Assembly (NCBI GenBank): GCA_050575255.1
Contig: JBNZDD010013634.1
Span: 1,469,269 to 1,533,268, forward strand
Direction: 5' to 3'
DNA length: 64,000 nt
Source of the DNA: Harriotta raleighana
Taxonomy: Eukaryota
In this document: positions 1 through 51,444 of the stretch, one piece after another
How the letters are laid out: each line of letters opens with the position of its first letter
Numbering within the stretch: position 1 is the stretch's first letter
The notes under the pieces: model-generated
Told to the model about the DNA's origin: nothing
Seen by the model: only the letters and a program-made list of their open reading frames with translations
Database searches by the model: none
Position numbers and translations under genes: made by a program

Positions 1-166
1 TGGTGATAGAAAGTTTCCTTTTACATTTACCCCTCGTTTAAAATACCTAGTTAGAATAATTTTTTAAAATTCTAATGGAAACATTCTCATCGTTTCATAT
101 TAGACCTTAATAATGCTGTACTTGTGCTTTTAAGTGCACATTAGATTGCTGCATTCATTGAGATTC

Positions 167-251
167 TCCAGAGTTACAAATGATGTTCTCACGATGGTCT
201 TCATAATAAATGTGATGAAATTTCTATATGAAATTAGCTGATGGCTCTGGA
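167..251 (+). ncRNA. SNORD35: Box C/D snoRNA, SNORD35/U35 family, copy 1
   Basis: Terminal stem TCCAGAGTTA/TGGCTCTGGA; box C ATGATG(T) 180-186; guide TCTCACGATGGTCT 187-200, matching the human U35A guide as recalled and complementary to 28S AGACCGUCGUGAGA with one G-U; C' GTGATGA 212-218; box D CTGA 238-241; about 100 nt upstream of a 3' splice site. Confidence 0.9.
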
Positions 252-341
252 TTATTTTGTTGCTTCAAAGTAGAAATGGAGGAGACTTGTTACAAGGTAA
301 CTGATTAAATTGTCTTTGGTTTCTCGCTAGTTTTTTCACAG

Positions 342-410
342 ATGAAGACAAGTGCTTCCTGGCAATTCTGAATTCCATGGGTCTTCAGGAATGCGATGCA
401 GTCTGTACAG
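342..410 (+). other. Predicted non-coding host exon (cassette 1)
   Basis: ttttttcacag|ATGAAG...GTACAG|gtgggc; homologous to 1225-1295, 2174-2249 and 3273-3336. Confidence 0.6.
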
Positions 411-705
411 GTGGGCGTGAAGGCTACTTGTGGTATCCCTGGGTGTTAAATTGTCTGGGTGACCTGTTATTATATGTAAGATTTACTAAACCCTAGCATC
501 GGTAAAGGGATGTACCTTTTTGATAGATATTTCCTTATCTATCAGTACCCTCCTACATTTACCCCTCGTTTGAAACACTTTGCTTGATTGAAATTTAAAT
601 TTGATTGAAACATTTTGTTTATTTAATTCTATATTGGATGGTGTGATGCAATATCCTAAACTTAAAAAGGTATTTACAGTTGACTAGTCATTTCCTTTTT
701 TTTAG

Positions 706-791
706 GCTGAGCTACAAAGCAGACACTAAAAGGCAGCGTCCCGCTGCAGATTTCTGATTTCTTCAGAAAGGCTTGGATACGTGTTCTCCAG
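706..791 (+). other. Predicted unique non-coding host exon
   Basis: Strong pyrimidine-tract acceptor ending tttag at 705 and donor CAG|gtatgt; stops in all frames. Confidence 0.6.
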
Positions 792-929
792 GTATGTAAG
801 AGAAACTCTGTATGTGTTAAGTGTTCCGAGAGACTGCCCTGTGTGAAGGACACAATATAAATGCAAGTGGCTTTCCCATACCACCGATCTCCCCCCCCCC
901 CCCATTCCCGCTCGGGTCCCGACCTGACT

Positions 930-990
930 GTTCAGCGCTTTGGGACGTCCTCCCGACATGAAAGGCGCTATATAAGTGTAATTTAGTTTT
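930..990 (+). mobile_element. L2-type retroelement 3' tail fragment
   Basis: CAGCGCTTTGGGACGTCCTCCCGACATGAAAGGCGCTATATAA; recurs at about 8015-8065(-), 23620-23685(+), 31015-31080(+) and 51455-51510(-). Confidence 0.7.
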
Positions 991-1050
991 TTAATAATAA
1001 TGTACTGGTGTTTATAAGTGCACATTAGATCGCTGCATTCATTGAGAATC

Positions 1051-1135
1051 TCCAGAGTTACAAATGATGTTCTCACGATGGTCTTCATAGTAAATGTGAT
1101 GAAATTTTTATATGATATTAGCTGATGGCTCTGGA
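1051..1135 (+). ncRNA. SNORD35: Box C/D snoRNA, SNORD35/U35 family, copy 2
   Basis: Same architecture: box C 1064-1069, guide TCTCACGATGGTCT 1071-1084, C' GTGATGA, box D CTGA 1122-1125, terminal stem intact. Confidence 0.9.
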
Positions 1136-1224
1136 CTGACTACTTGGTTGATTCAGAGTAGAAACGAAGGAGACTTGTAAGGTAACTCATCAAATTGTTT
1201 TTGTTTTCAGCCGGTTTTTCACAG

Positions 1225-1295
1225 CTGAAGAGGAAAGTTCCATGGTAATATTTCTGAATCAATGGGTCTTCGAGAATGCTAAGCAGTTTGCTCCG
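1225..1295 (+). other. Predicted non-coding host exon (cassette 2)
   Basis: tttttcacag|CTGAAG...CTCCG|gtaagc. Confidence 0.6.
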
Positions 1296-1999
1296 GTAAG
1301 CATGAGGGCTATTTAATCGTGCAGTTTTGCTGAGTATTGAATCATCTGCGTGAACTGGTTTCAGTGTGTGTCGGGTTTACTGACCCCGGCGTCAATAAAG
1401 GGATTTGCTTTCCTACCAAAAAGATATGCAAGCTCTCTCTTGAGATTGTGCATTCACAAAGTGAGATAAGTGGCTCCCTCGGTCAGCATTTGTAAAGATT
1501 CATTGCTTTATTATAAATGAACTAAAAAGAGTTAACTGTTGGAAATAAAATTTTAAACTAGTCTTATTCAATATTTTGAATTCTAGAACAGTTTTTTGGG
1601 TTGACACTTGCATAATAACTCTTAATACCTTTTTTGATCCTTTTTAAAGCACACTTTTTCAAATGCCTAGTCCATTTGCGACAAGATAAATGGTTACGTT
1701 CATTGAATAAGAGAATCAAATGTATTTTTGTAGATCAGTTGCATGGCAGTTTTATTTCATTATTACTTGTGGAAATGGTTTTTATAACTGCTTTGATGAA
1801 GCTGCCCAATGGTAACATCTGGTTAAATAACTGGTGATAGAAAGTTTCCTCTTACATTTACTCATTGCTTAAAACACCTGGTTAGATTAATTTTAAATTC
1901 TAATGGGAGCATTCCTATTATTTCATACCATATTAGAATTAAATAATGCTGTACTGATGCTTTTAAGTGCACATTGGATTGCTGCATTCATTGAGATTC

Positions 2000-2084
2000 T
2001 CCAGAGTAACAAATGATGTTCTCACGATGGTCTTCATAATAAATGTGATGAAATTTCTATCTGAAATTAGCTGATGGCTCTGGG
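2000..2084 (+). ncRNA. SNORD35: Box C/D snoRNA, SNORD35/U35 family, copy 3
   Basis: Box C 2013-2018, guide 2020-2033, C' GTGATGA, box D CTGA 2071-2074, stem CCAGAGT/GCTCTGG. Confidence 0.9.
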
Positions 2085-2173
2085 TTGTTTTGTTGTTTCA
2101 AAGTGGAAATGGAGGAGACTTGTTGCAAGGTAACTGATCAAATTGTTTTGTTTCTGCTAGTTTTTTTTTACAG

Positions 2174-2249
2174 CCAAAGATAAGTGATCCATGGCAATTC
2201 TGAACCTGCAAAATGCTAAGTCTTCGGGAATGCTAAGCAGCTTGTTCAG
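2174..2249 (+). other. Predicted non-coding host exon (cassette 3)
   Basis: T-run acag|CCAAAG...TTCAG|gtgggc. Confidence 0.6.
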
Positions 2250-2794
2250 GTGGGCATGAAGGCTTAATCTTGTGGTTGTCCTGAGTCTGGATGATCTGGT
2301 TTTACTACATGCAAGTGTTACTGACCATTACATCAGTGATGATCAGTAGAGGGTATACATACCATGCTTGCCTATCAGTAGAGAAAATACAAGCTATCAC
2401 ACATCTGTGCTTCCATAAACTGAAAGAGTTGGCTCCCTCTCTGTCAGCTAGGGCAATGACATATTTGTAAAGATACATTGTTTTACTGTAGATGATCTAA
2501 AAAGAGGGACGGTTGGAAATAAAAATCGTTAATTAATCTTCTGTTATTTGTCATTTCAAATTCTAGTACCCAGTTCAGTAATTTAATCTTAAATTTTGTC
2601 CGCAAAACATACAGTCGTTTCACATTACAGAATCTACTGTAAAGCTGTTTGAGATGTCTTGAAAATGTGTGATAAGGCACTATATCAAATACAACAATTA
2701 GTATAACACAATGGCCCTATAATAGATTTTTGTTCATTTTATAAAGTACAATTTTCAAATGCTTAGTTCATATGTAGATTGTGATTGGAAGCAA

Positions 2795-3098
2795 CGCAAG
2801 CGAGACACCTGGGTTCGATTCCCACCAGGGCAAAAGGTTGGGCGAGTTTCCTTTCTCCACACTCCTCTGTTGACCTAGCAGTAAGTAGGAACCTGGTTGT
2901 TATTTCATTGGCAGATTGTGTTTTGGGGGATAATAGTTCCTTAACAGAAAATTGGTCACTTCAAACCGCAGCCGTTTGGGGGGCAATGTTATGTGCAATT
3001 GGTGCCATTTTTTTGCCCATAAAATATATTGTCGATTCACTTTACAGTTTATTCTGTGTAGCTCTTTGAGGCACCTACCTGCAAGGATCATTATTATT
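2795..3098 (+). mobile_element. tRNA-derived SINE, 5'-truncated
   Basis: B box GGGTTCGATTCCC, GGGCGAGTTTCC, central GACCTAGCAGTAAGTAGGAACC, core GTCGATTCACTTTACAG, tail GCAAGGATCATTATTATT. Confidence 0.85.
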
Positions 3099-3118
3099 TG
3101 TGACAAAATATGAGACTA

Positions 3119-3201
3119 TCCAGAGTTACAAATGATGTTCACACGATGGTCTTCATAATACATGTGATGAAATTGTTATTACGTTGACTGATGGCTCTGG
3201 A
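3119..3201 (+). ncRNA. SNORD35: Box C/D snoRNA, SNORD35/U35 family, copy 4 (divergent)
   Basis: Box C 3132-3137, guide TCACACGATGGTCT 3139-3152 (one T>A change), C' GTGATGA, box D CTGA 3188-3191, stem intact. Confidence 0.85.
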
Positions 3202-3272
3202 TTATTTTATTGATTCAAAGTAGAGATGAAGGAGACTTGTTGCAAGCTAACTGATCAAATTGTTTTTCGCAG

Positions 3273-3336
3273 CTGAAGATGAAAGTGCTCCATGGTAATA
3301 TTTCTGAATCCATGGGTCTTCCAGATTGCTAAGCAG
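3273..3336 (+). other. Predicted non-coding host exon (cassette 4)
   Basis: tttttcgcag|CTGAAG...AAGCAG|gtgggc. Confidence 0.55.
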
Positions 3337-4150
3337 GTGGGCATGAGGGCTACTTATTCTTGTAGTTTCCCGAATGTAAAACTGTCTGGGTGACCTGGTT
3401 ACAGTACATGTAAACTTTGCTGACTCATATCTCCAGCGCTTAAATGACTTGCTTCTTCTAGGTTATTTGTAATTTCTTTGGTCTTCAAATCTGTAGCCTT
3501 TGGGGGAAATACTACTACTACATGGCTGCTGGCTCTTCAATTCTGACCAAAATAATTTTGCACTTTATAATTTCTCTGATCATTGGTTAGGAAAAATAAT
3601 GCTATTTGTCCCTGAACTTGGCTATCATCTACAAACATACTTTCCAGCAATTGGGAACAGTGGCTTTTTTTTCCTCTTCTGCCTCATTCTGTCTCAGTCC
3701 TTTTGAGTGGACCAATAATAGCAAAAAGTTCAGTTTGCCGTTTATTTAAAACATTTGGTGTGTTGTATGTTACCAGTTCTCTATTTAACATTCCAACTAA
3801 AAATGGTAAATGAGTCAATTTTCCCTTAACTGTAACCTTTTTTCTCTTCTAGACACCAACTTTGAAGAGGGATTCAATTCAGGGACAAAATGAATTGACA
3901 GCTGTCAATTCATTCAGGACTTCACCTTACTGGGTCATCCAATCATTAAAATGCCTGGGATGCATTTTGATGCATTTGGGTTTGTGAGCTCTTGCCTGGT
4001 TTTTGTACAGCTAGTTTGCTTGTGCTGTAGTTTCACAGCTGAGTCCAGTTGACTGTCTGTCCGATAGCGAAGAATAGTCTTTGTGATTGACTTCAGCTTG
4101 TACAAGAAATCATTTCTAGCTCCTATTGAACTAAATGAGGCCATAATTAG

Positions 4151-4156
4151 AATAAA
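4151..4156 (+). terminator. Polyadenylation signal of the putative host transcript
   Basis: AATAAA about 300 nt after the strong acceptor ttttttctcttctag ending at 3852; GT-rich sequence downstream. Confidence 0.5.
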
Positions 4157-4184
4157 TTTCACTGAGTATTACATATTGGGAGGT

Positions 4185-4460
4185 TTCTTGGTTGTCTGAG
4201 CTGGATTGGCTGGAGCCAGTGAGAGAGCTATGATTGTCCTTGGTGCCTTTGGGCTTCAGAGGGGAAATTAATCAGAATTTCTTCTCTTGATTGCTTTTCA
4301 GTGGGTGCTGCTGGAAACTAAGCATTTTTGGACATTGAGCAAGGCCAATTGGTCTTAATTATCATTCTCCTGGGGCCAAATAGCCTGTTGATACTGCCTG
4401 AAACATGAGGAATGGGTTACGAAAGAGTGTTGTTACTTGTGGAATTGTGTCCCTAGGTGA
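4185..4460 (+). mobile_element. Old interspersed SINE-like repeat (family not assigned)
   Basis: Similar to the reverse complement of about 33300-33430 (GGGAGAGAAAATCAACCAGG..CTCCTGATCGCCATCCAGTGACC..CTTGGAAAGTGCA). Confidence 0.45.
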
Positions 4461-5494
4461 ACTTGGACTTGTGCATATTTCGAAGGAAAGGGGGGATATT
4501 TTCATTGTACTATCTTATATAAGCAGGATTCTGAAGGGGGTGTTGTTGAACCCTTATTTTACCTCACAAATGCTTTGAATACTTTTAGACTTAGTGTTAA
4601 GTTTTGAGTAGAAAGTTCTATTGGACATAAATCACTTTTTGAGTATTTCATATGGTTTACATTGTGAGTTGCTGTCAATTATTCAAGCAGCTATTGACTG
4701 GTTTCTTAAACTGCCTCTAATTGTGGCCCCATTTGTATTACTGAAAACACAAGAAAACTTAAGTCACTATGACATTTACAAATTACTGCAATAACCAAAT
4801 GTCGTATTTTCTCTTGGGGACAGCAAAGATTACTTAAGTAACAAGAAAATTGCTGTTTAAATCTTGAATGGCTGTTGGTAGGTACAACATGAAAGCAAAT
4901 GTAGCTGAAACGTTCATCTATTGTGTCCCAACGGCTTTAGTCCAGATTATTGCATGTTAATATCATTAACCATGTAATGTATGTTAGCACTGCAAGTGCC
5001 AAAGAGCACAATTATATTGCGGTCTCGCTTGAACGGTGGGATATAATAGTACAGATTATAAACACTTTAGAAATACCCATGTTTTACTTGTATATGTTAA
5101 TGTAACTTAAAATTGTATTTTAGCTGGGTGAGAACTGGGTTTGAGGTTGAATCCTGCTTGTTTATTAAACATGGTTTTCTTAAACTCACTGGGTGCTTAA
5201 TTGTGTGATTTTCGGGATCTATGGTGGACGTGAGATGCATTGCACTATCTCTGGTTGAAAGCTATTTTAGTTTTTAACAAACTTTTAAACGCATGCTACT
5301 TACTATATTAAAATTTTCTATGGATTTGTATTATTTGGATAGGTGGCTTATTGTTCGTTCTTACAGTAACAGATCATCTAAACTTAGCTTGTGCTTGCTG
5401 CAAGTTCCTATTGCTGATTAATTTAGCTTGTTTCTATGTTTTGACTGACTAGTGATGAGGGGTTGCATTACTTACATTGCTACAGCGAGGTCTT

Positions 5495-5770
5495 CAGGTA
5501 AGACATTAAATTGAGTTCCTGTCTGCCTGTTCAGGTCAACGTTGAAGATCCTGTGGCACTATTTGAAAGGAGAAGGGAGTTTTCTTGTGTCATAGCCAAT
5601 CCTCGAGACAAAATTGGTCAATCATTTCATCAACATTTGGAAGTCATTGCTTTGTGCAAATTGTTTGTTGTGTTTCTCTACAGTCACTATATTTCACAGT
5701 AAATCCTGTGAAGTAATTTGATCTGTTCTACTGACCAAAGAGATTTTATATCAAATGCAGCAATAATTAC
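5495..5770 (+). mobile_element. Degenerate Deu-domain SINE (SacSINE/AmnSINE-like)
   Basis: GACATTAAATTGAGTTCCTGTCTGCCTGTTCAGGTCAACGTTGAAGATCCTGTGGCACTATTTGAAAGGAG resembles the recalled Deu central domain; L2-like tail ATATCAAATGCA. Confidence 0.6.
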
Positions 5771-6068
5771 AGAAACTTGCAGCACAATGGGGAAAACAGG
5801 AAATATACCATATTTATAAATGTTCACAAAAATGAAAATTAAGTGTTCAATGGGTTATAATTTGCAATTTTATGCTATGTGCGTTGGTTGTTGCACAAAA
5901 GGAATTGCGGGTGTTTTTAATTGTTTGACAATCGTAAAAGTTGCTTCCAATTTCTTGACATATTTACATAATTAAAGCCATTTGTATTTACATCTGTAGT
6001 ACACAACATGCAAACTAAATCCTAATAGGTTGGATTATCTAACCAGTGGGGGGGACACATACAGTTGG

Positions 6069-7993
6069 ACATACAAATGATAGGTGTGGGAGATATGTAT
6101 TTGTATTTCCCTCTGATGGCGATTTGTGATTCCCAGATATGAATTGGTATTGGGGTTAAGGAGCCAGTTTGCTTTTAGGTTCATTATCAACTACCATGGC
6201 ATGAACGTTGGGTTGAGGGAGGATACAGTTTATAATCCGTGTGATCTGCATTTGCGTCTCCAAAGAACTGTCTTGTAACGGTTTGGCTGCTTGTACTCTA
6301 TTTCAAAGCTATTGACCACAATTTGCTATCTGGCTTGTGTTAACAGCATTTAATTAGAACATGGTTCAGATTAATTTTTAATTTAAAAAAAATCATATTT
6401 AGGCCATCTCATTTTCTGGAGATCCAGGAAAGGTAGAAATAAGGTTGGATCAAACTCCCCAACAGCAGGTATGTATTATTTGGTTATGGCTGTTCTGCTA
6501 CTTGTTCAGGTGATGGGAATTAAGTTTCCTCATGACTTGGCGAATCTTCTTGAACAATTCATTATTGGGTTATTTTAGAAACCCACAGCTGATTTTGTGC
6601 CAGGCGATCGGCCAAATTAAAATAGCACCAGTTCAACGGTGCTCGGCAAAGCCAGAAGTCGGGAATCAAATCATCTCGGAAAGCAAAGTGGAGAAGATTT
6701 GTTCAATTGGAGGAAATAGATTAAGCTTGAAAGGAAGCCTGAGATGAAACACTTCCAATTCCCATTTTTGCATTGAACTGGATTGGAGTAATTCTAATTA
6801 ATGATTTCAATGTCTGTCTTATTGAGACTAGCTATGTCTTATCCTGATGCATTACAAGGAACCATGAAATCTGTGAATATGCATACTTGAATAAACTCCA
6901 GTGTTAAGGCTCCCACTTGAAGATTTACTACTGTAGATATTTGGCACTAATTGCACCTAGATGATATTTTTAATTCTGCAAGTTGATTTTGGCAATTGCT
7001 GAATCCTGAGTGTTGTCACTACAACAATATNACATACAAATGATAGGTGTGGGAGATATGTATTTGTATTTCCCTCTGATGGCGATTTGTGATTCCCAGA
7101 TATGAATTGGTATTGGGGTTAAGGAGCCAGTTTGCTTTTAGGTTCATTATCAACTACCATGGCATGAACGTTGGGTTGAGGGAGGATACAGTTTATAATC
7201 CGTGTGATCTGCATTTGCGTCTCCAAAGAACTGTCTTGTAACGGTTTGGCTGCTTGTACTCTATTTCAAAGCTATTGACCACAATTTGCTATCTGGCTTG
7301 TGTTAACAGCATTTAATTAGAACATGGTTCAGATTAATTTTTAATTTAAAAAAAATCATATTTAGGCCATCTCATTTTCTGGAGATCCAGGAAAGGTAGA
7401 AATAAGGTTGGATCAAACTCCCCAACAGCAGGTATGTATTATTTGGTTATGGCTGTTCTGCTACTTGTTCAGGTGATGGGAATTAAGTTTCCTCATGACT
7501 TGGCGAATCTTCTTGAACAATTCATTATTGGGTTATTTTAGAAACCCACAGCTGATTTTGTGCCAGGCGATCGGCCAAATTAAAATAGCACCAGTTCAAC
7601 GGTGCTCGGCAAAGCCAGAAGTCGGGAATCAAATCATCTCGGAAAGCAAAGTGGAGAAGATTTGTTCAATTGGAGGAAATAGATTAAGCTTGAAAGGAAG
7701 CCTGAGATGAAACACTTCCAATTCCCATTTTTGCATTGAACTGGATTGGAGTAATTCTAATTAATGATTTCAATGTCTGTCTTATTGAGACTAGCTATGT
7801 CTTATCCTGATGCATTACAAGGAACCATGAAATCTGTGAATATGCATACTTGAATAAACTCCAGTGTTAAGGCTCCCACTTGAAGATTTACTACTGTAGA
7901 TATTTGGCACTAATTGCACCTAGATGATATTTTTAATTCTGCAAGTTGATTTTGGCAATTGCTGAATCCTGAGTGTTGTCACTACAACAATAT
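6069..7993. repeat. Apparently identical 962-bp direct duplication around a single N (probable assembly overlap)
   Basis: 6069-7030 matches 7032-7993 with N at 7031; identical ORFs at 6532 and 7495, offset 963. Confidence 0.95.
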
Positions 7994-36437: not shown

Positions 36438-36752
36438 GGAGTCCTGTAGCTCAATTAGAGCACTCGCCATTGCAAGCGAGAGATCTGGGTTCAATTCCAA
36501 CAGGGCAAAACCTTGGGCAAGTTTCCTTACTCCAAACTCCTAATAATAATCCCTCCCCCCAAAAAAACCTAATAGTAAATGGTCATTTCAATCCATGATT
36601 GTTTGTGGGACAGTGCTGTGCCCAATTGGCTGCTGTGTTTCACCCATATATATACATATATATACACAGTCAGTTCACTTTACAGTATATTCTGTGAAGC
36701 ACTTGGAGACATCTGGATGACCGCTATATCAAATGCAAGGATTATTATTATT
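36438..36752 (+). mobile_element. Full-length tRNA-derived SINE
   Basis: Head GGAGTCCTGTAGCTCAATTAGAGCACTCGCC (A box), GGGTTCAATTCC (B box), tail GCTATATCAAATGCAAGGATTATTATT. Confidence 0.9.
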
Positions 36753-37885: not shown

Positions 37886-38203
37886 AATAATAATAAACCT
37901 TGCCTTTGGTATAGCGTTTTTCACATCTTTTAGATGTCTCTAAGTGCTTCACAGAATAAACTGTAAAGTGAATTGACTGCATATTTGTGGGCAAACTGCA
38001 GCAGCCAATTGCGTGCAGCTGTGTCCCACAAATAGACATGGATTAAAATGACCAATTTGTTATTGTTGTTTCCATGAGGGATTATTATTAGGCTTGTGGA
38101 CTAAAGAAACTTGCCCATGGTTTCACCCTGACATGCTGGGGGAATCAAACCCGGGTATCTCGCTTGTAAGGCGAGTGCTCTAACCATTGAGCTACAGGAC
38201 TCC
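37886..38203 (-). mobile_element. Full-length tRNA-derived SINE
   Basis: Reverse head CTCGCTTGTAAGGCGAGTGCTCTAACCATTGAGCTACAGGACTCC; (AAT)n tail at left. Confidence 0.92.
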
Positions 38204-39174: not shown

Positions 39175-39493
39175 AATATAATATTAATCTTTGCCTTTGA
39201 TACAGCACTTTTCCTGTCTTCTAGATGTCTCAAAGCGCTTCACAGAATACTGTAAACTGAATTGACTATATTGTGTGGGCGAAACGCGACAGCCAATTGT
39301 GCATAACAGTGTCCCACCAACAGTTGTGGATTGAAATGACCAATTTTATTATTGTGTTTTTTTTTGGAGGGATCATTATTAGGCATGTGGAGTATGGAAA
39401 CTTGCCCAAGGTTTCGCCATGACCTGTCTGGATTCGAAACTCAGGTCTCACGCTTGTAAGGCGAGTGCTCTAACCACTGAGCTACAGGACTTC
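39175..39493 (-). mobile_element. Full-length tRNA-derived SINE
   Basis: Same head, core and tail motifs as 37886-38203. Confidence 0.92.
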
Positions 39494-44750: not shown

Positions 44751-45096
44751 AATAAAAATAATAATCCTTGCATTTGATACAGCGCTTTTCACTTCTTCTA
44801 GACATCTCATTTTGTAGACAACCTTGTATGTAGCCTGAGCTAATTGGGCATCTCAAAGTACTTCACAGAAAGTGAATTTGAATGTATATTTGTGGGCAAA
44901 ACATAGCAGCCAATTGCTTACAGGAGTGGCCCACAAACTGTTGTTGATTGCATCACCAAATTATCTTTTTTTTTTGAGGGATTATTATTAGGTGTATGGA
45001 GTAAGGGAACCTGCCAAAGGTTTTGCCCTGCCTAGAATCTAACCCAGGACTCTCGCTTGTGAGGAGAGTGCTCTAACCATTGAGCTACAGGACTCC
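44751..45096 (-). mobile_element. Full-length SINE with an internal foreign insert, LMO1 intron 2
   Basis: Head ..GAGTGCTCTAACCATTGAGCTACAGGACTCC; insert 44809-44853 matches 45718-45762. Confidence 0.9.
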
Positions 45097-48420: not shown

Positions 48421-50709
48421 GTATTTATTCTTTTGAAGTATGATTATATCTAGAAAGCAACCCACCAATCTTAGCCTAAATCAGATAAAAACCCAAAGCA
48501 GGTCCTGCCAAAAATTGACAGCTTGTTTTCCACTTTCTAGAACACAACATGTAGATTAGTGTTTCTTCAAATAGATGCCGAAAAGTTTAACTTCTTAGTC
48601 TGCAAGTGTTACCTAACATAAATTCACTTCCAACACAAATTTATTTGGAGCCAGAGAGAAGCCAAAAACTCTCCTCTAGCCCATTTGCAAGCTTGCAATC
48701 ATTGAGAAGCAGATCATTTTGTTACTTTCTACCCACTTTAGTATAAAGGACTTTGGTGATGTCGCAATACATCTGAAAAACAGGCAATCAAAAGATTTAC
48801 TAAAATGTGGATTTCCTAAAATCTGGTTCAAAGAGCAATAGTTCTCATTATACTGGGGCTGAAAGTAAAACTCTTTCTGCTAATCTTCATGATCAGTGAG
48901 AGTAGGTGGGAGAATAGACATTGAACCACTTAAGGGCACAGGCAGAAATGATCAAATAATTGAGCATTTGTTTATCCTCTCTACATTTCCACGCACCAAA
49001 GTGGCAACAGTTATTTGGTTTAGATTCCAGGGCCATCCCAGGAAGATATACAAGAAATTATTTAGGAAGGTGAATCTCACGAGGCTTAGTGAAGGCATGA
49101 AGATTGCTTTCAGTCTCAGTTTTAAAAAAGTGGGCATTTTGAATCAATTATTTCCTGCGGCTTCTGTCTAACTAACCCTCAAAATTCATCTTAATCTTCA
49201 TCTAATAGTGGTCTTGTGCATATTGCATGAACATTCCAGGATAATGTCTAATGCTTTTCTCTCTAAAAGATAGTTAAACTGGAATAGTCACCAAATGTGC
49301 CCAGATAAGCTTCAGGCGATCGAAGATGTGAATAGAAGTCAGAATTTTTTTTTACTGGATTGGTATTTTAACATACTGTCCACTTTTCCACTTGGCATTG
49401 TGCCTTACTGCTTGGAGGTCAACAATTGTTTAACATTCGTAGAAGCCCTGAGATGAACCACTTTTCTTTCAGAGCCAAGTGCTATTAGAAACTAAAAAGG
49501 AGAGTTGTATGAAGCTTAAAATTGACCTTGTAAGGAACAGTTAAATACAGTGGTTGCCAACTTTAAAGCAACAGGTTTGCAGCAATGATCTGGTTCTGGC
49601 AAATTTATCATTTACATAGAACACAGTTGATAAATACTGTTCACTTGGAGATTGACTGCAGTAGAGCAGCTGTTATTTGTGGGCTCATAGGATTTCTAAG
49701 CTAAATGCCTTGCTACCATTCTTGCAAATAACCTTAGGAAAAGCAGTCACCGGGGCAAGGTGAGAACAGTCAGTCTAAAATACACAATACACCTTTAAAT
49801 ATAGAAGATCTTAGTTGTGGGGTTAATAGTGCAATAGCATTCAAGGTAGTAAAGAGATTACAAAAATTTCAGCTCTAAAAAGGAAGCCATTTGGAGCTAT
49901 GCAATCCTATTTCCCTGCATGTTTGCCAAATGAATAGATACATTAGATCAGGCAGTCAATTCTATAGAAAAAAGGAAAACAGAACTAGGATCCACACTAC
50001 TGCTGAAACACCAATTGAGAAGTTGTGAAGTGGAACAGGAAACACAGCTTGGTTTTGAATTCAAGTCTATATCTATGGTTGTCTGAAAGAAGTTCTGCAG
50101 TGAGGGCGGCTTTACTAAGCAAAATCTGAAGTGAGTAGTGCCACACCTATTGATGTTTGATTGTGCACTTGAATTCTGTGAAGGAGTTAGTCATAACACA
50201 ATAAGGCAAAGTTTTCCTAGAACAGTTCCAGGCCCTCTGGACATCAGCCTTTATAGGATTCCCAAGAGAGAGCTATTCAAGCCAATTTAAATACATGTTA
50301 TAGCCAGTGGAGGATTTACAGCAACAAGGGCCTTGTAACCAGAGGTCAAGCCAAAAGGAAATTATTTGCATTGGTAACTTAACTACTATGTTGCATCTCA
50401 CACACACTAGTCTTACAAAACATAAATGGCTGCTAGCCACTTTCCTGGACAAGTTCAAAAATTGGCAAAATTCACAATTTATTTGGATTGAAAGTTTTGT
50501 AGGACTTTAGCTCATTTATTGTTGTGAATGAAACTTATTGGGCTGCAGAATTTCTCATGGTTATAATACAAGATATGCATGATATCTTCCACTAGAGGCG
50601 AGGCTTTTGTAAACCACACCAGCTTTGATTATTTGTGTACAAGGGATGCCATTTACCTACATTTTCATGGTTCTGAACACATAAACTTGCAACAAAAGAT
50701 ACGATTTAC

Positions 50710-50923
50710 CTCAAATAGTCCCTGCGGCAGAGAATTAGGTTTGCTTTTGTGTAGAGAGTTGATCCAACTTCTCCAAGGCGGCAGTCACAACAAGCACATT
50801 TTAGACAGTCTTCATGCCAGTATTTATCCAGTGCCTTTAGCAGGTAGCGGTCCTTGATCTTGCGATTGCAGCCAGCACAGCCTTTTTGCTTTCCTTTTGG
50901 CTGCACAGAAAGCATTGGTACAC
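50710..50923 (-). CDS. LMO1: LMO1 coding exon 2 (LIM1 domain)
   Basis: ttgcag|GT GTA CCA ATG.. = (G)[70 protein letters not shown](R) AG|gtaaat; 214 nt; PKGKQKG is diagnostic for LMO1 (LMO3 has PDTKPKG). Confidence 0.98.
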
Positions 50924-51444
50924 CTGCAATTCAAAGGAAATCTTCAATCAGGGATTGGGCTTCCAAATATTCTCCTTCAACTGTGGAATTTGTGAAGTCT
51001 ACAAATTCACTTTTCAAATGATGAACCATATCGAATGACCATTAGAAGTTGGACAGGAAACTGAAATCACAATTGCTTCAATCCACTTCCCAGTATACAA
51101 GCAGCTACAAGAAGCCAGTCACAGTAAGGTATTACTTGTTCTTTCTTCCTCCATCCACTACAACTTCCACACGACAAACTGGCAGTTTCCATTTTTCAAG
51201 GATTAATCTATCTATTCTACCAAGCTTTTCCATTTAAGAGCAAATGGGATGTACGAATACTAGTTCTAAGTAGAAGTTATACAAGTTTAAGCACAATTAA
51301 GTTAAATTTGTGCATCTCATTTAAGACTGGCAAGTGCTTGAATAGATTTCTTGATACAGTAATGCACCATTTGCAGAAATGGCATGTGTACAGTTCTTGC
51401 AGCATAGCTACCCAGCTCTGTAGTAAATACTTTTACAACCATCA

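Follow-up and report, generated by a model that had tools for sequence, protein, structure and literature searches.

A tandem array of U35-like C/D snoRNAs in a likely non-coding host gene next to RIC3

Introduction

In the imprinted SNORD115/116 and SNORD113/114 arrays, the repeat unit is an exon together with an intronic C/D snoRNA. These arrays contain tens of guides in placental mammals, most of them orphans; PMC3349704 gives 30-50 copies. Outside placental mammals, extra snoRNA copies within one host are the rule (PMC3349704, PMC6984369, and PMC2653536). GAS5/SNHG-type hosts are presented in PMC2653536 as hotspots of in-gene snoRNA duplication, and the zebrafish lncRNA host FP101887 is given in PMC7668251 with nine related SNORD52/202 rRNA guides. 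For Xenopus tropicalis, the supplementary table of PMC6984369 places three SNORD35 entries within 1.1 kb, contains nine SNORD103-family entries, four of them spaced 347-351 nt apart, and repeats a six-snoRNA block at an offset of ~5.0 kb. From these table coordinates, we infer that the Xenopus clusters are cassette duplications.

U35 is encoded by SNORD35 (U35A and U35B in human), and a table row in PMC2653536 gives snR73 as its yeast counterpart. The three SNORD35 rows of PMC11880993, all of them long model predictions at sites other than rps11, do not enter our comparison, and three supplements of PMC3349704 contain no SNORD35 entry. Among the papers listed on shark and chimaera snoRNAs, none is about U35, and the papers found on tandem duplication with a non-coding host in cartilaginous fish are unrelated; of those listed on RIC3/LMO1, lncRNA, and snoRNA, none concerns the locus described here, judging by title and opening of the abstract. 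These searches gave no SNHG name at RIC3 and no paper on RIC3-DT.

We analyzed a stretch of 64,000 nucleotides (the window) and its upstream sequence, from a vertebrate genome whose repeats resemble elements of cartilaginous fish. We hold it probable that five U35-like guides, one per intron, lie in a likely non-coding host gene that is head-to-head with RIC3, and that they are predicted to direct methylation of the 28S C4506 equivalent. The array adds a further example to an established pattern and reveals no new mechanism, as snoRNA mobility and multicopy hosts are already documented; it is a clean case in which a snoRNA's switch of host and the amplification of its cassette can be dissected.

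Comparison with described systems

Measured against the Rfam consensus and the zebrafish sequence of SNORD35, the array copies share the D'-side guide, the 28S target, the register, the AUGAUGU C box, and the CUGAUG end. They are, however, shorter, with a C-to-D span of 60-62 nt, have no counterpart of the model's GC-rich inner arm, and show CAUA as their D' box. There are five copies in a host that is not a ribosomal-protein gene, whereas SNORD35 elsewhere is found in rps11 (zebrafish and chicken) or at two loci on human chromosome 19.

A comparable arrangement occurs in FP101887, an apparently non-coding host of 11 exons with many related copies of an rRNA methylation guide in successive introns, although the snoRNA family there is another one. 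In the present array, the exons are visibly duplicated along with the snoRNA. In the Xenopus table, SNORD35 stands beside SNORD34 and four SNORD50 entries with no host name, whereas in this genome rpl13a houses SNORD34, and SNORD50 maps to a different contig. Like GAS5/SNHG hosts, the gene has short exons that conserve no frame, no more than a single C/D snoRNA in any intron, placed close to the acceptor, and a pyrimidine-rich stretch at its predicted start, but it carries one snoRNA family only. The initial annotation set the array beside the imprinted clusters, as the best-known case of such amplification. Given the nine-guide zebrafish host and the three Xenopus SNORD35 entries, this comparison was overdrawn: the present array consists of five canonical rRNA guides, not tens of orphans.

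Five copies with a U35-type guide

Four intact C/D snoRNAs with the U35 guide had been described in the window, and it had been suggested that the array might extend past the left edge. All four were found, with boxes, stem, and guide, and inspection of the upstream sequence yielded a fifth; the U35-like array is real, with one copy per intron (Table 1). The C (AUGAUGU), C' (GUGAUGA), and D (CUGA) boxes are present in 5/5 copies, which are flanked by terminal stems of 10 bp with energies from -12.8 kcal/mol in copy 4, the weakest, to -16.4 kcal/mol in copy 5, the strongest, which also keeps all boxes. The word "intact" suits these three boxes and not D', which is a degenerate CAUA in all five copies, with two mismatches to CUGA and without the G of the usual GA pair. 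Expressed zebrafish guides listed in supplement 4 of PMC7668251 include non-consensus D' boxes, e.g., CUAA and UUGA. The 13-nt guide occurs four times in the window at no more than one mismatch, and 0 of 100 shuffles contained any match.

Table 1. Predicted features of the snoRNA array and its host (positions are those of the window unless stated otherwise)
Feature	Position	Strand	C box to D box end	Details
Copy 1, U35-like snoRNA	G000:C13634:1468526-1468587, 742 nt left of the window	+		own 73-nt exon
Copy 2, U35-like C/D snoRNA with terminal stem	167..251	+	180-241	C box 180, guide 187-200, D' CAUA, C' GUGAUGA, D box 238-241; stem -15.6 kcal/mol; Rfam SNORD35 29.0 bits, E 0.0018; 14-bp duplex with own 28S
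Copy 3, U35-like snoRNA	1051..1135	+	1064-1125	C box 1064, D box 1122-1125; 28.1 bits; 14-bp duplex
Copy 4, U35-like snoRNA	2000..2084	+	2013-2074	C box 2013, D box 2071-2074; 25.9 bits; 14-bp duplex
Copy 5, U35-like snoRNA, most diverged	3119..3201	+	3132-3191	C box 3132, D box 3188-3191; 25.2 bits
Predicted non-coding snoRNA host, 3' part	1..4180	+		~11 exons in total; from splice signals and repeat homology
B-type exon, repeated, 69 nt	342..410	+		branch-point-like A at 304
A-type exon, 86 nt	706..791	+		has a 91-nt duplicate left of the window
B-type exon, repeated, 71 nt	1225..1295	+		acceptor weak by small matrix
B-type exon, repeated, 76 nt	2174..2249	+
B-type exon, repeated, 64 nt	3273..3336	+
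Predicted terminal exon	3853..4180	+		acceptor rank 4/552; AATAAA at 4151; 3' end approximate

At the U35 site, the guide pairs with this genome's own 28S over 14 bp, including one G-U pair, in four of the five copies, and over 11 bp in copy 5, whose guide carries a single mismatch distally. In the AGACC of 28S, the partner of the second C is the base five positions ahead of D', a D'+5 register that matches the zebrafish SNORD35-LSU4506 row in supplement 4 of PMC7668251. The assignment of a U35-type guide is upheld by these duplexes, and the array is predicted to guide 2'-O-methylation at the 28S cytidine equivalent to human C4506. A search for a second target, in which the D-side segment was compared with 7,089 nt of rRNA copies that are incomplete and in part degenerate, gave a best Watson-Crick count of 7-8, within the range of 5-11 from 40 shuffles; a second target outside this set is conceivable.

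SNORD35 (RF00211, clan CL00056) is the best Rfam family for all five copies, at 25.2-29.3 bits. Every copy misses the gathering cut-off of 36 bits, such that the matches surface by E-value only; the proposed SNORD35 identity thus stands as to family and not as to score, and we call the copies U35-like rather than formal Rfam members. Ordered by E-value, SNORD35 accounts for the top four of seven Rfam matches in window positions 1-6000 and the top one of two in the 40 kb upstream. At the gathering level, the whole window returned four tRNA-like matches only and no snoRNA, meaning that the Rfam cut-off overlooks this genome's U35 entirely.

The likely sole source of U35

A genome-wide search with the SNORD35 family ranked exactly these five copies first among 58 candidates scored. 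A 14-nt pattern had 12 matches genome-wide: five at the array, four in 28S copies, and three others whose inspected flanks lack a neighboring C box. Neither search found a further U35 copy outside the array in this assembly of 13,732 contigs, a degree of fragmentation at which an unassembled U35 elsewhere is conceivable.

Whether the introns of rpl13a and rps11 still carry U35 had been raised as a question, and the answer is that both genes, which are U35 hosts in other vertebrates, are gap-free and without it. The rpl13a gene (205 codons, no N) contains three SNORD33/32-family snoRNAs and one SNORD34, and rps11 (158 codons, no N) contains no snoRNA; the best guide match within either gene has 4 mismatches in 13 positions. 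Because neither gene carries U35 here, the genome likely obtains this methylation guide from the array locus alone. The array adds a U35 location outside ribosomal-protein genes, which should help to polarize the history of U35 once relatives are compared.

The host gene and its neighborhood

The window does not reach the host's predicted start, its four predicted 5' exons, or copy 1 and the exon that goes with it. GT-AG was found at all five putative junctions named by the initial annotation (410>706, 791>1225, 1295>2174, 2249>3273, and 3336>3853). For scoring splice sites, we used a small matrix derived from 11 rpl13a and rps11 introns of the same genome. The donors rank 2, 7, 9, 2, and 2 of 582 GT in the region, and the acceptors rank 5, 176, 10, 64, and 4 of 552 AG; the acceptor at 1225, at rank 176, is therefore weak. 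The end of the D box lies 100, 99, 99, and 81 nt before the acceptor in the window copies, in agreement with the 81-100 nt first noted. While the acceptor distance varies in this way, the distance from the D box to a branch-like A is 62, 62, 63, 62, and 62 nt, a fixed spacing that is partly inherited through the duplications.

The exons that follow the snoRNAs have exactly the lengths first reported, represent all three phases, and have no conserved frame. A second exon type (A) is duplicated as well, beyond the single type recognized earlier. In the predicted spliced RNA, the longest AUG ORF has 59 codons, and the first has 34 codons, with its stop in exon 4 of 11. The repeated exons are likely non-coding, as in SNHG/GAS5-type genes. 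No snoRNA was found in the intron preceding the A-type exon at 706-791, and an Rfam search of the host's 5' introns to E 10 turned up no snoRNA, just five low-scoring matches of other kinds. A C/D motif scan of five snoRNA-free introns gave three candidates, which were rejected, with stems of only 1-3 bp.

The proposed link between three 5' exons and the cassette exons spans a 2.5-kb intron that contains numerous further exon candidates. The pyrimidine tract at the predicted start (L006 4657-4668, ~5.3 kb left of the window), a candidate 5'TOP, adjoins a 10-N gap and a poly-C run, and the CpG observed/expected ratio there is only 0.5-0.6. RIC3 lies upstream on the minus strand, head-to-head with the host, as evidenced by a PF15361 match (E 6e-19), and ~700 nt separate the start of an exon-1-like RIC3 ORF from that predicted for the host. 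Of the 171 ORFs of at least 58 aa in the upstream 40 kb, the 150 that were scanned gave no plus-strand Pfam match. Two kinds of host had been proposed, an SNHG-type gene or the non-coding 3' exons of an upstream gene; the former is favored, and the latter is disfavored by the opposite strand of RIC3 and the lack of a plus-strand Pfam match. Among the window ORFs of at least 66 aa (150 of 163 scanned), the sole real match is a LIM exon at 50709-50930 on the minus strand; a Neurensin match fell below the cut-off and was rejected.

We propose that transcription of the host would begin near the pyrimidine tract, in a GC-rich stretch shared with RIC3. Splicing would free each intron, a snoRNP would form on the lariat, and trimming would leave a snoRNA of ~70 nt. 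The spliced host RNA would likely be a substrate for nonsense-mediated decay.

Duplication history and alternative readings

Over the snoRNA, copies 1-4 are 93-99% identical, with every change outside the boxes and the D' guide, and copy 5 shares 85-88% identity with them. The tree groups copies 1 and 3 (support 91/91) and, less firmly, copies 2 and 4 (only 71/74). A history consistent with these data is that one cassette of intron, snoRNA, and exon doubled, that the two-cassette unit of ~1.8 kb then duplicated in tandem (copies 1 and 2 giving 3 and 4), and that copy 5 arose as a further duplicate. Identity across the tandem duplication is 122/124 in the snoRNA cores and 29/30 in the stem arms, compared with 105/140 in the B exons, 61/84 in the A exon, and 874/1174 in other intron sequence (core versus intron, P 1e-12; B exon versus intron, P 1.0). 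These differences make it likely that selection acts on the snoRNAs and not on the exons. The earlier view that amplification proceeded as snoRNA-plus-exon cassettes is sustained by repeated exons that lack a frame and diverge at the intron rate. As far as sequence alone can tell, 98% identity in the snoRNAs against ~75% in exons and introns within one duplication argues that the host exons are passengers. Gene conversion could also contribute to core identity.

Several other readings were weighed. One holds that the RIC3-divergent gene is an old, unnamed vertebrate host that keeps a pre-bony-vertebrate (pre-rps11) position of U35 and is the lineage's sole U35, with five copies for dosage and copy 5 drifting to a new role. 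We regard this as doubtful; if true, a conserved 28S methylation near the catalytic center would be tied to the promoter of a receptor chaperone. Slightly more doubtful is that only one or two copies are active, the remainder being either redundant duplicates of recent origin or copies held similar by gene conversion, with copy 5 decaying. The lower identity and guide mismatch of copy 5, the weak stem of copy 4, and the report in PMC10234308 that about one-third of annotated vertebrate snoRNAs are expressed fit this reading, but in each half of the duplication identity peaks precisely at the snoRNA, with flanks at ~75%, and the changes in copies 1-4 spare the boxes and the D' guide. Diagnostic positions still separate copies 1 and 3 from copies 2 and 4, indicating that homogenization has not been full, and copy 5 has the strongest stem and every box.

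It is improbable that the host is a small-protein gene that translates the 34-codon ORF running through predicted exons 2-4 and carries the cassettes in 3' UTR introns. The ORF has a good start context, and exon 3 (69 nt) is open in frame; nevertheless, a 23-codon open stretch is expected by chance about one-third of the time, the stop-bearing A exon diverges at the intron rate, and the seven junctions downstream of the ORF would, by the established rule, invite decay. Very improbable is that the copies are non-functional relics, with methylation absent or guided by an unassembled U35. The D' box, the sub-threshold Rfam scores, and the fragmented assembly are compatible with relics, whereas the strong conservation of core and stem against the flanks, the intact C, C', and D boxes, the failure to find another U35 candidate in the genome, and the expressed zebrafish guides with non-consensus D' boxes are not what relics would lead us to expect. 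Finally, false duplications do occur nearby in the assembly, but an artifactual array is hardly credible. Misassembly, which the initial annotation named as a possible refutation, is unlikely on sequence grounds because the cassette exons are 64-90% alike and differ by indels, and no N lies between window positions -3215 and 7031; the true artifacts are identical and N-split, as where window 6069-7030 appears again at 7032-7993.

A Five-Copy Array of U35-Like snoRNAs

A repeat occurs four times in the first 3.4 kb of the window, and its best-conserved part is a short element of the box C/D type. A search of the whole window with Rfam at gathering level returned no snoRNA. Within window positions 1 to 6000, SNORD35 (RF00211) supplied the top four of seven matches by E-value, at 25.2 to 29.0 bits, all below the Rfam SNORD35 cut-off of 36 bits. 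The family named by the initial annotation is, therefore, the best match, albeit under threshold for every copy. Its count of four holds for the window, and the array is, as it allowed, longer: one more copy (copy 1; 29.3 bits) sits 742 nt beyond the left edge of the window, with no similar element in a further 40 kb upstream of it.

Genome-wide searches point to the same five elements. Four occurrences of the 13-nt guide in the window contrast with none in 100 shuffles, and a DNA search of the genome yielded five matches, all on the window's own contig. A 14-nt pattern has 12 occurrences genome-wide, of which five are at the array, four are in 28S copies, and three lack an adjacent C box. In a SNORD35 family search of the genome, the five array copies ranked first among the 58 of 18,348 candidates that were scored.

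All five copies carry a C box (AUGAUGU), a guide followed by D' (CAUA), C' (GUGAUGA), and D (CUGA), with C-to-D spans of 60 to 62 nt. Each element is closed by a stem formed from its flanks, with energies between −12.8 and −16.4 kcal/mol. The z-scores from whole-element folding are modest (−0.6 to −3.2). Against H. raleighana's own 28S copies, the guide forms a 14-bp duplex with one G-U pair in copies 1 to 4 and an 11-bp duplex in copy 5, in the register of the SNORD35-LSU4506 row for zebrafish in supplement 4 of PMC7668251. For the D-side segment, comparison with 7,089 nt of partial rRNA gave no match better than those of shuffles. The D' boxes lack the usual GA, and rows of the same supplement include zebrafish guides with nonconsensus D' boxes. 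The snoRNA-to-splice-site distances and exon lengths reported by the initial annotation were reproduced exactly upon recomputation; the distance to the acceptor varies (81 to 100 nt), while a branch-point-like adenosine lies 62 to 63 nt past the snoRNA end in every copy. [quoted passage not shown] Despite failing Rfam's formal threshold, the element has a high probability of working like SNORD35 and would direct methylation accordingly.

The Predicted Host Gene and the Duplication Within It

The predicted start of the host lies some 5.3 kb to the left of the window, where the sequence has a GC-rich stretch, then a pyrimidine tract and a donor site. Further along come two other candidate exons, an exon of type A, and copy 1 together with its B-type exon. 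Under a matrix trained on just 11 introns from H. raleighana, the ten predicted donors rank 1 to 63 among 582 GT and their ten acceptors 4 to 176 among 552 AG. The 5' exon chain is hypothetical because the third predicted intron, of 2.5 kb, holds many other candidate exons. The 11-exon transcript would measure about 1,045 nt, with exon lengths in all three phases; its first open reading frame (ORF) has 34 codons and stops in exon 4, and its longest AUG ORF has 59. To judge from sequence, the array likely lies in an unannotated SNHG-type gene, one of the two hosts proposed by the initial annotation, amplified by exon-carrying cassette duplication and presumably spliced and expressed away from RIC3.

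In a self-alignment, −779..434 pairs with 1027..2276 (1,273 nt at 79.5%), and a second match links the A exon region to window 554-868; the unit A exon-snoRNA-B exon-snoRNA-B exon therefore appears to have been duplicated in tandem. In a tree, copies 1 and 3 group (91/91), and copies 2 and 4 do so weakly (71/74). Across the duplication, identity is 122/124 in snoRNA cores, 29/30 in stem arms, 132/157 between snoRNA and acceptor, 105/140 in B exons, 61/84 in the A exon, and 874/1174 in other intron. Cores differ from intron (P = 1e-12) and B exons do not (P = 1.0); the test assumes independent sites, and parts of the intron align poorly. Over the five copies, identity averages 0.925 in the snoRNA against 0.725 in the exon, and copy 5 is the most diverged. 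Such a profile is consistent with selection that acts on the snoRNAs but not on the exons. Gene conversion may contribute to it, but copies 1/3 can still be told apart from copies 2/4.

Usual Hosts and Comparable Systems

The initial annotation had asked whether introns of rpl13a and rps11 still carry U35. Both genes (contigs C13665 and C13496) are single, intact, and free of gaps, and U35 is absent from each, the best guide match there having 4 mismatches in 13. In rpl13a, introns 1 to 3 hold three SNORD33/32-family snoRNAs and intron 5 holds one SNORD34, whereas introns 4, 6, and 7 have no snoRNA match in Rfam. The snoRNAs of introns 1 and 3 are almost the same, even in their flanks. Because no other candidate emerged from the 14-nt pattern or among the 58 family candidates scored, the array is likely the genome's only U35 source, within the limits of a fragmented assembly.

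Elsewhere, U35 resides in rps11 in zebrafish (supplement rows of PMC7668251) and chicken (PMC2653536). A table in PMC6984369 gives Xenopus three U35 copies adjoining SNORD34 and SNORD50, with the host unnamed. In H. raleighana, SNORD50 has three copies, in successive introns of one short-exon, apparently noncoding host with a polyadenylation signal at its end. The initial annotation had likened the array to imprinted SNORD clusters. These are not the nearest analog because multicopy snoRNAs (copy numbers being higher outside placental mammals; PMC3349704, PMC6984369), in-gene duplication (the main route of snoRNA expansion in chicken; PMC2653536), and frequent host turnover (only 77% of orthologs of ribosomal-protein-hosted snoRNAs keep their host class; PMC13736004) are documented, and because zebrafish FP101887 is an apparently noncoding host of nine related rRNA guides (PMC7668251). 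The literature searched names no U35 host at RIC3, although subscription papers (for example, Makarova and Kramerov 2009 and Kehr 2014) and supplements may list one.

Genomic Neighborhood and Repeats

On the opposite strand, about 700 nt from the predicted host start, begins an ORF that we take to resemble RIC3 exon 1. A RIC3 family exon lies further along that strand (PF15361, E = 6e-19; 20 homologs). Pfam gave no plus-strand match among the 150 scanned of 171 upstream ORFs of at least 58 aa. The LMO-type gene downstream of the array is presumably LMO1; with RIC3 upstream, it recalls the human RIC3-LMO1 neighborhood.

The identical duplicates split by a single N are most likely scaffold-overlap artifacts. 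The five tRNA-like elements of the window have one head sequence in common and are likely copies of a tRNA-derived SINE.

Coordinates of features at the array and at related loci (L numbers denote stretches taken from the H. raleighana genome, G000)
Feature	Position	Strand	Remarks
Identical duplicates	window 6069-7030 / 7032-7993		split by single N
Identical duplicates	L006 (host start region) about 2216-2344, 4001-4130, 6718-6848		N-split
Short inverted repeat	L006 7262-7300		third predicted host intron; no Rfam match
tRNA-like elements	window 36440-36508, 38131-38201, 39419-39491, 45023-45094		pass Rfam tRNA cut-off
tRNA-like element	window about 2760-2830		intron between cassettes 4 and 5
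LIM-domain exon, LMO-type gene	window 50709-50930	minus	downstream of array
Reverse transcriptase fragment (PF00078)	L007 274-609	minus	within RIC3 gene region
rpl13a	L036 (G000:C13665:4323500-4333499)	minus	
tRNA gene, CCA anticodon	L036 7802-7873	plus	67.6 bits; ~200 nt upstream of rpl13a start, strands opposed
SNORD50, three copies	G000:C13651:3944961-3945791 (L043-L045)		
Degraded non-LTR retroelement end	L018 1-810 (G000:C13641:68161-68970)		zinc-knuckle and nuclease-like motifs; adjoins 28S rDNA, presumably at the R2 insertion site
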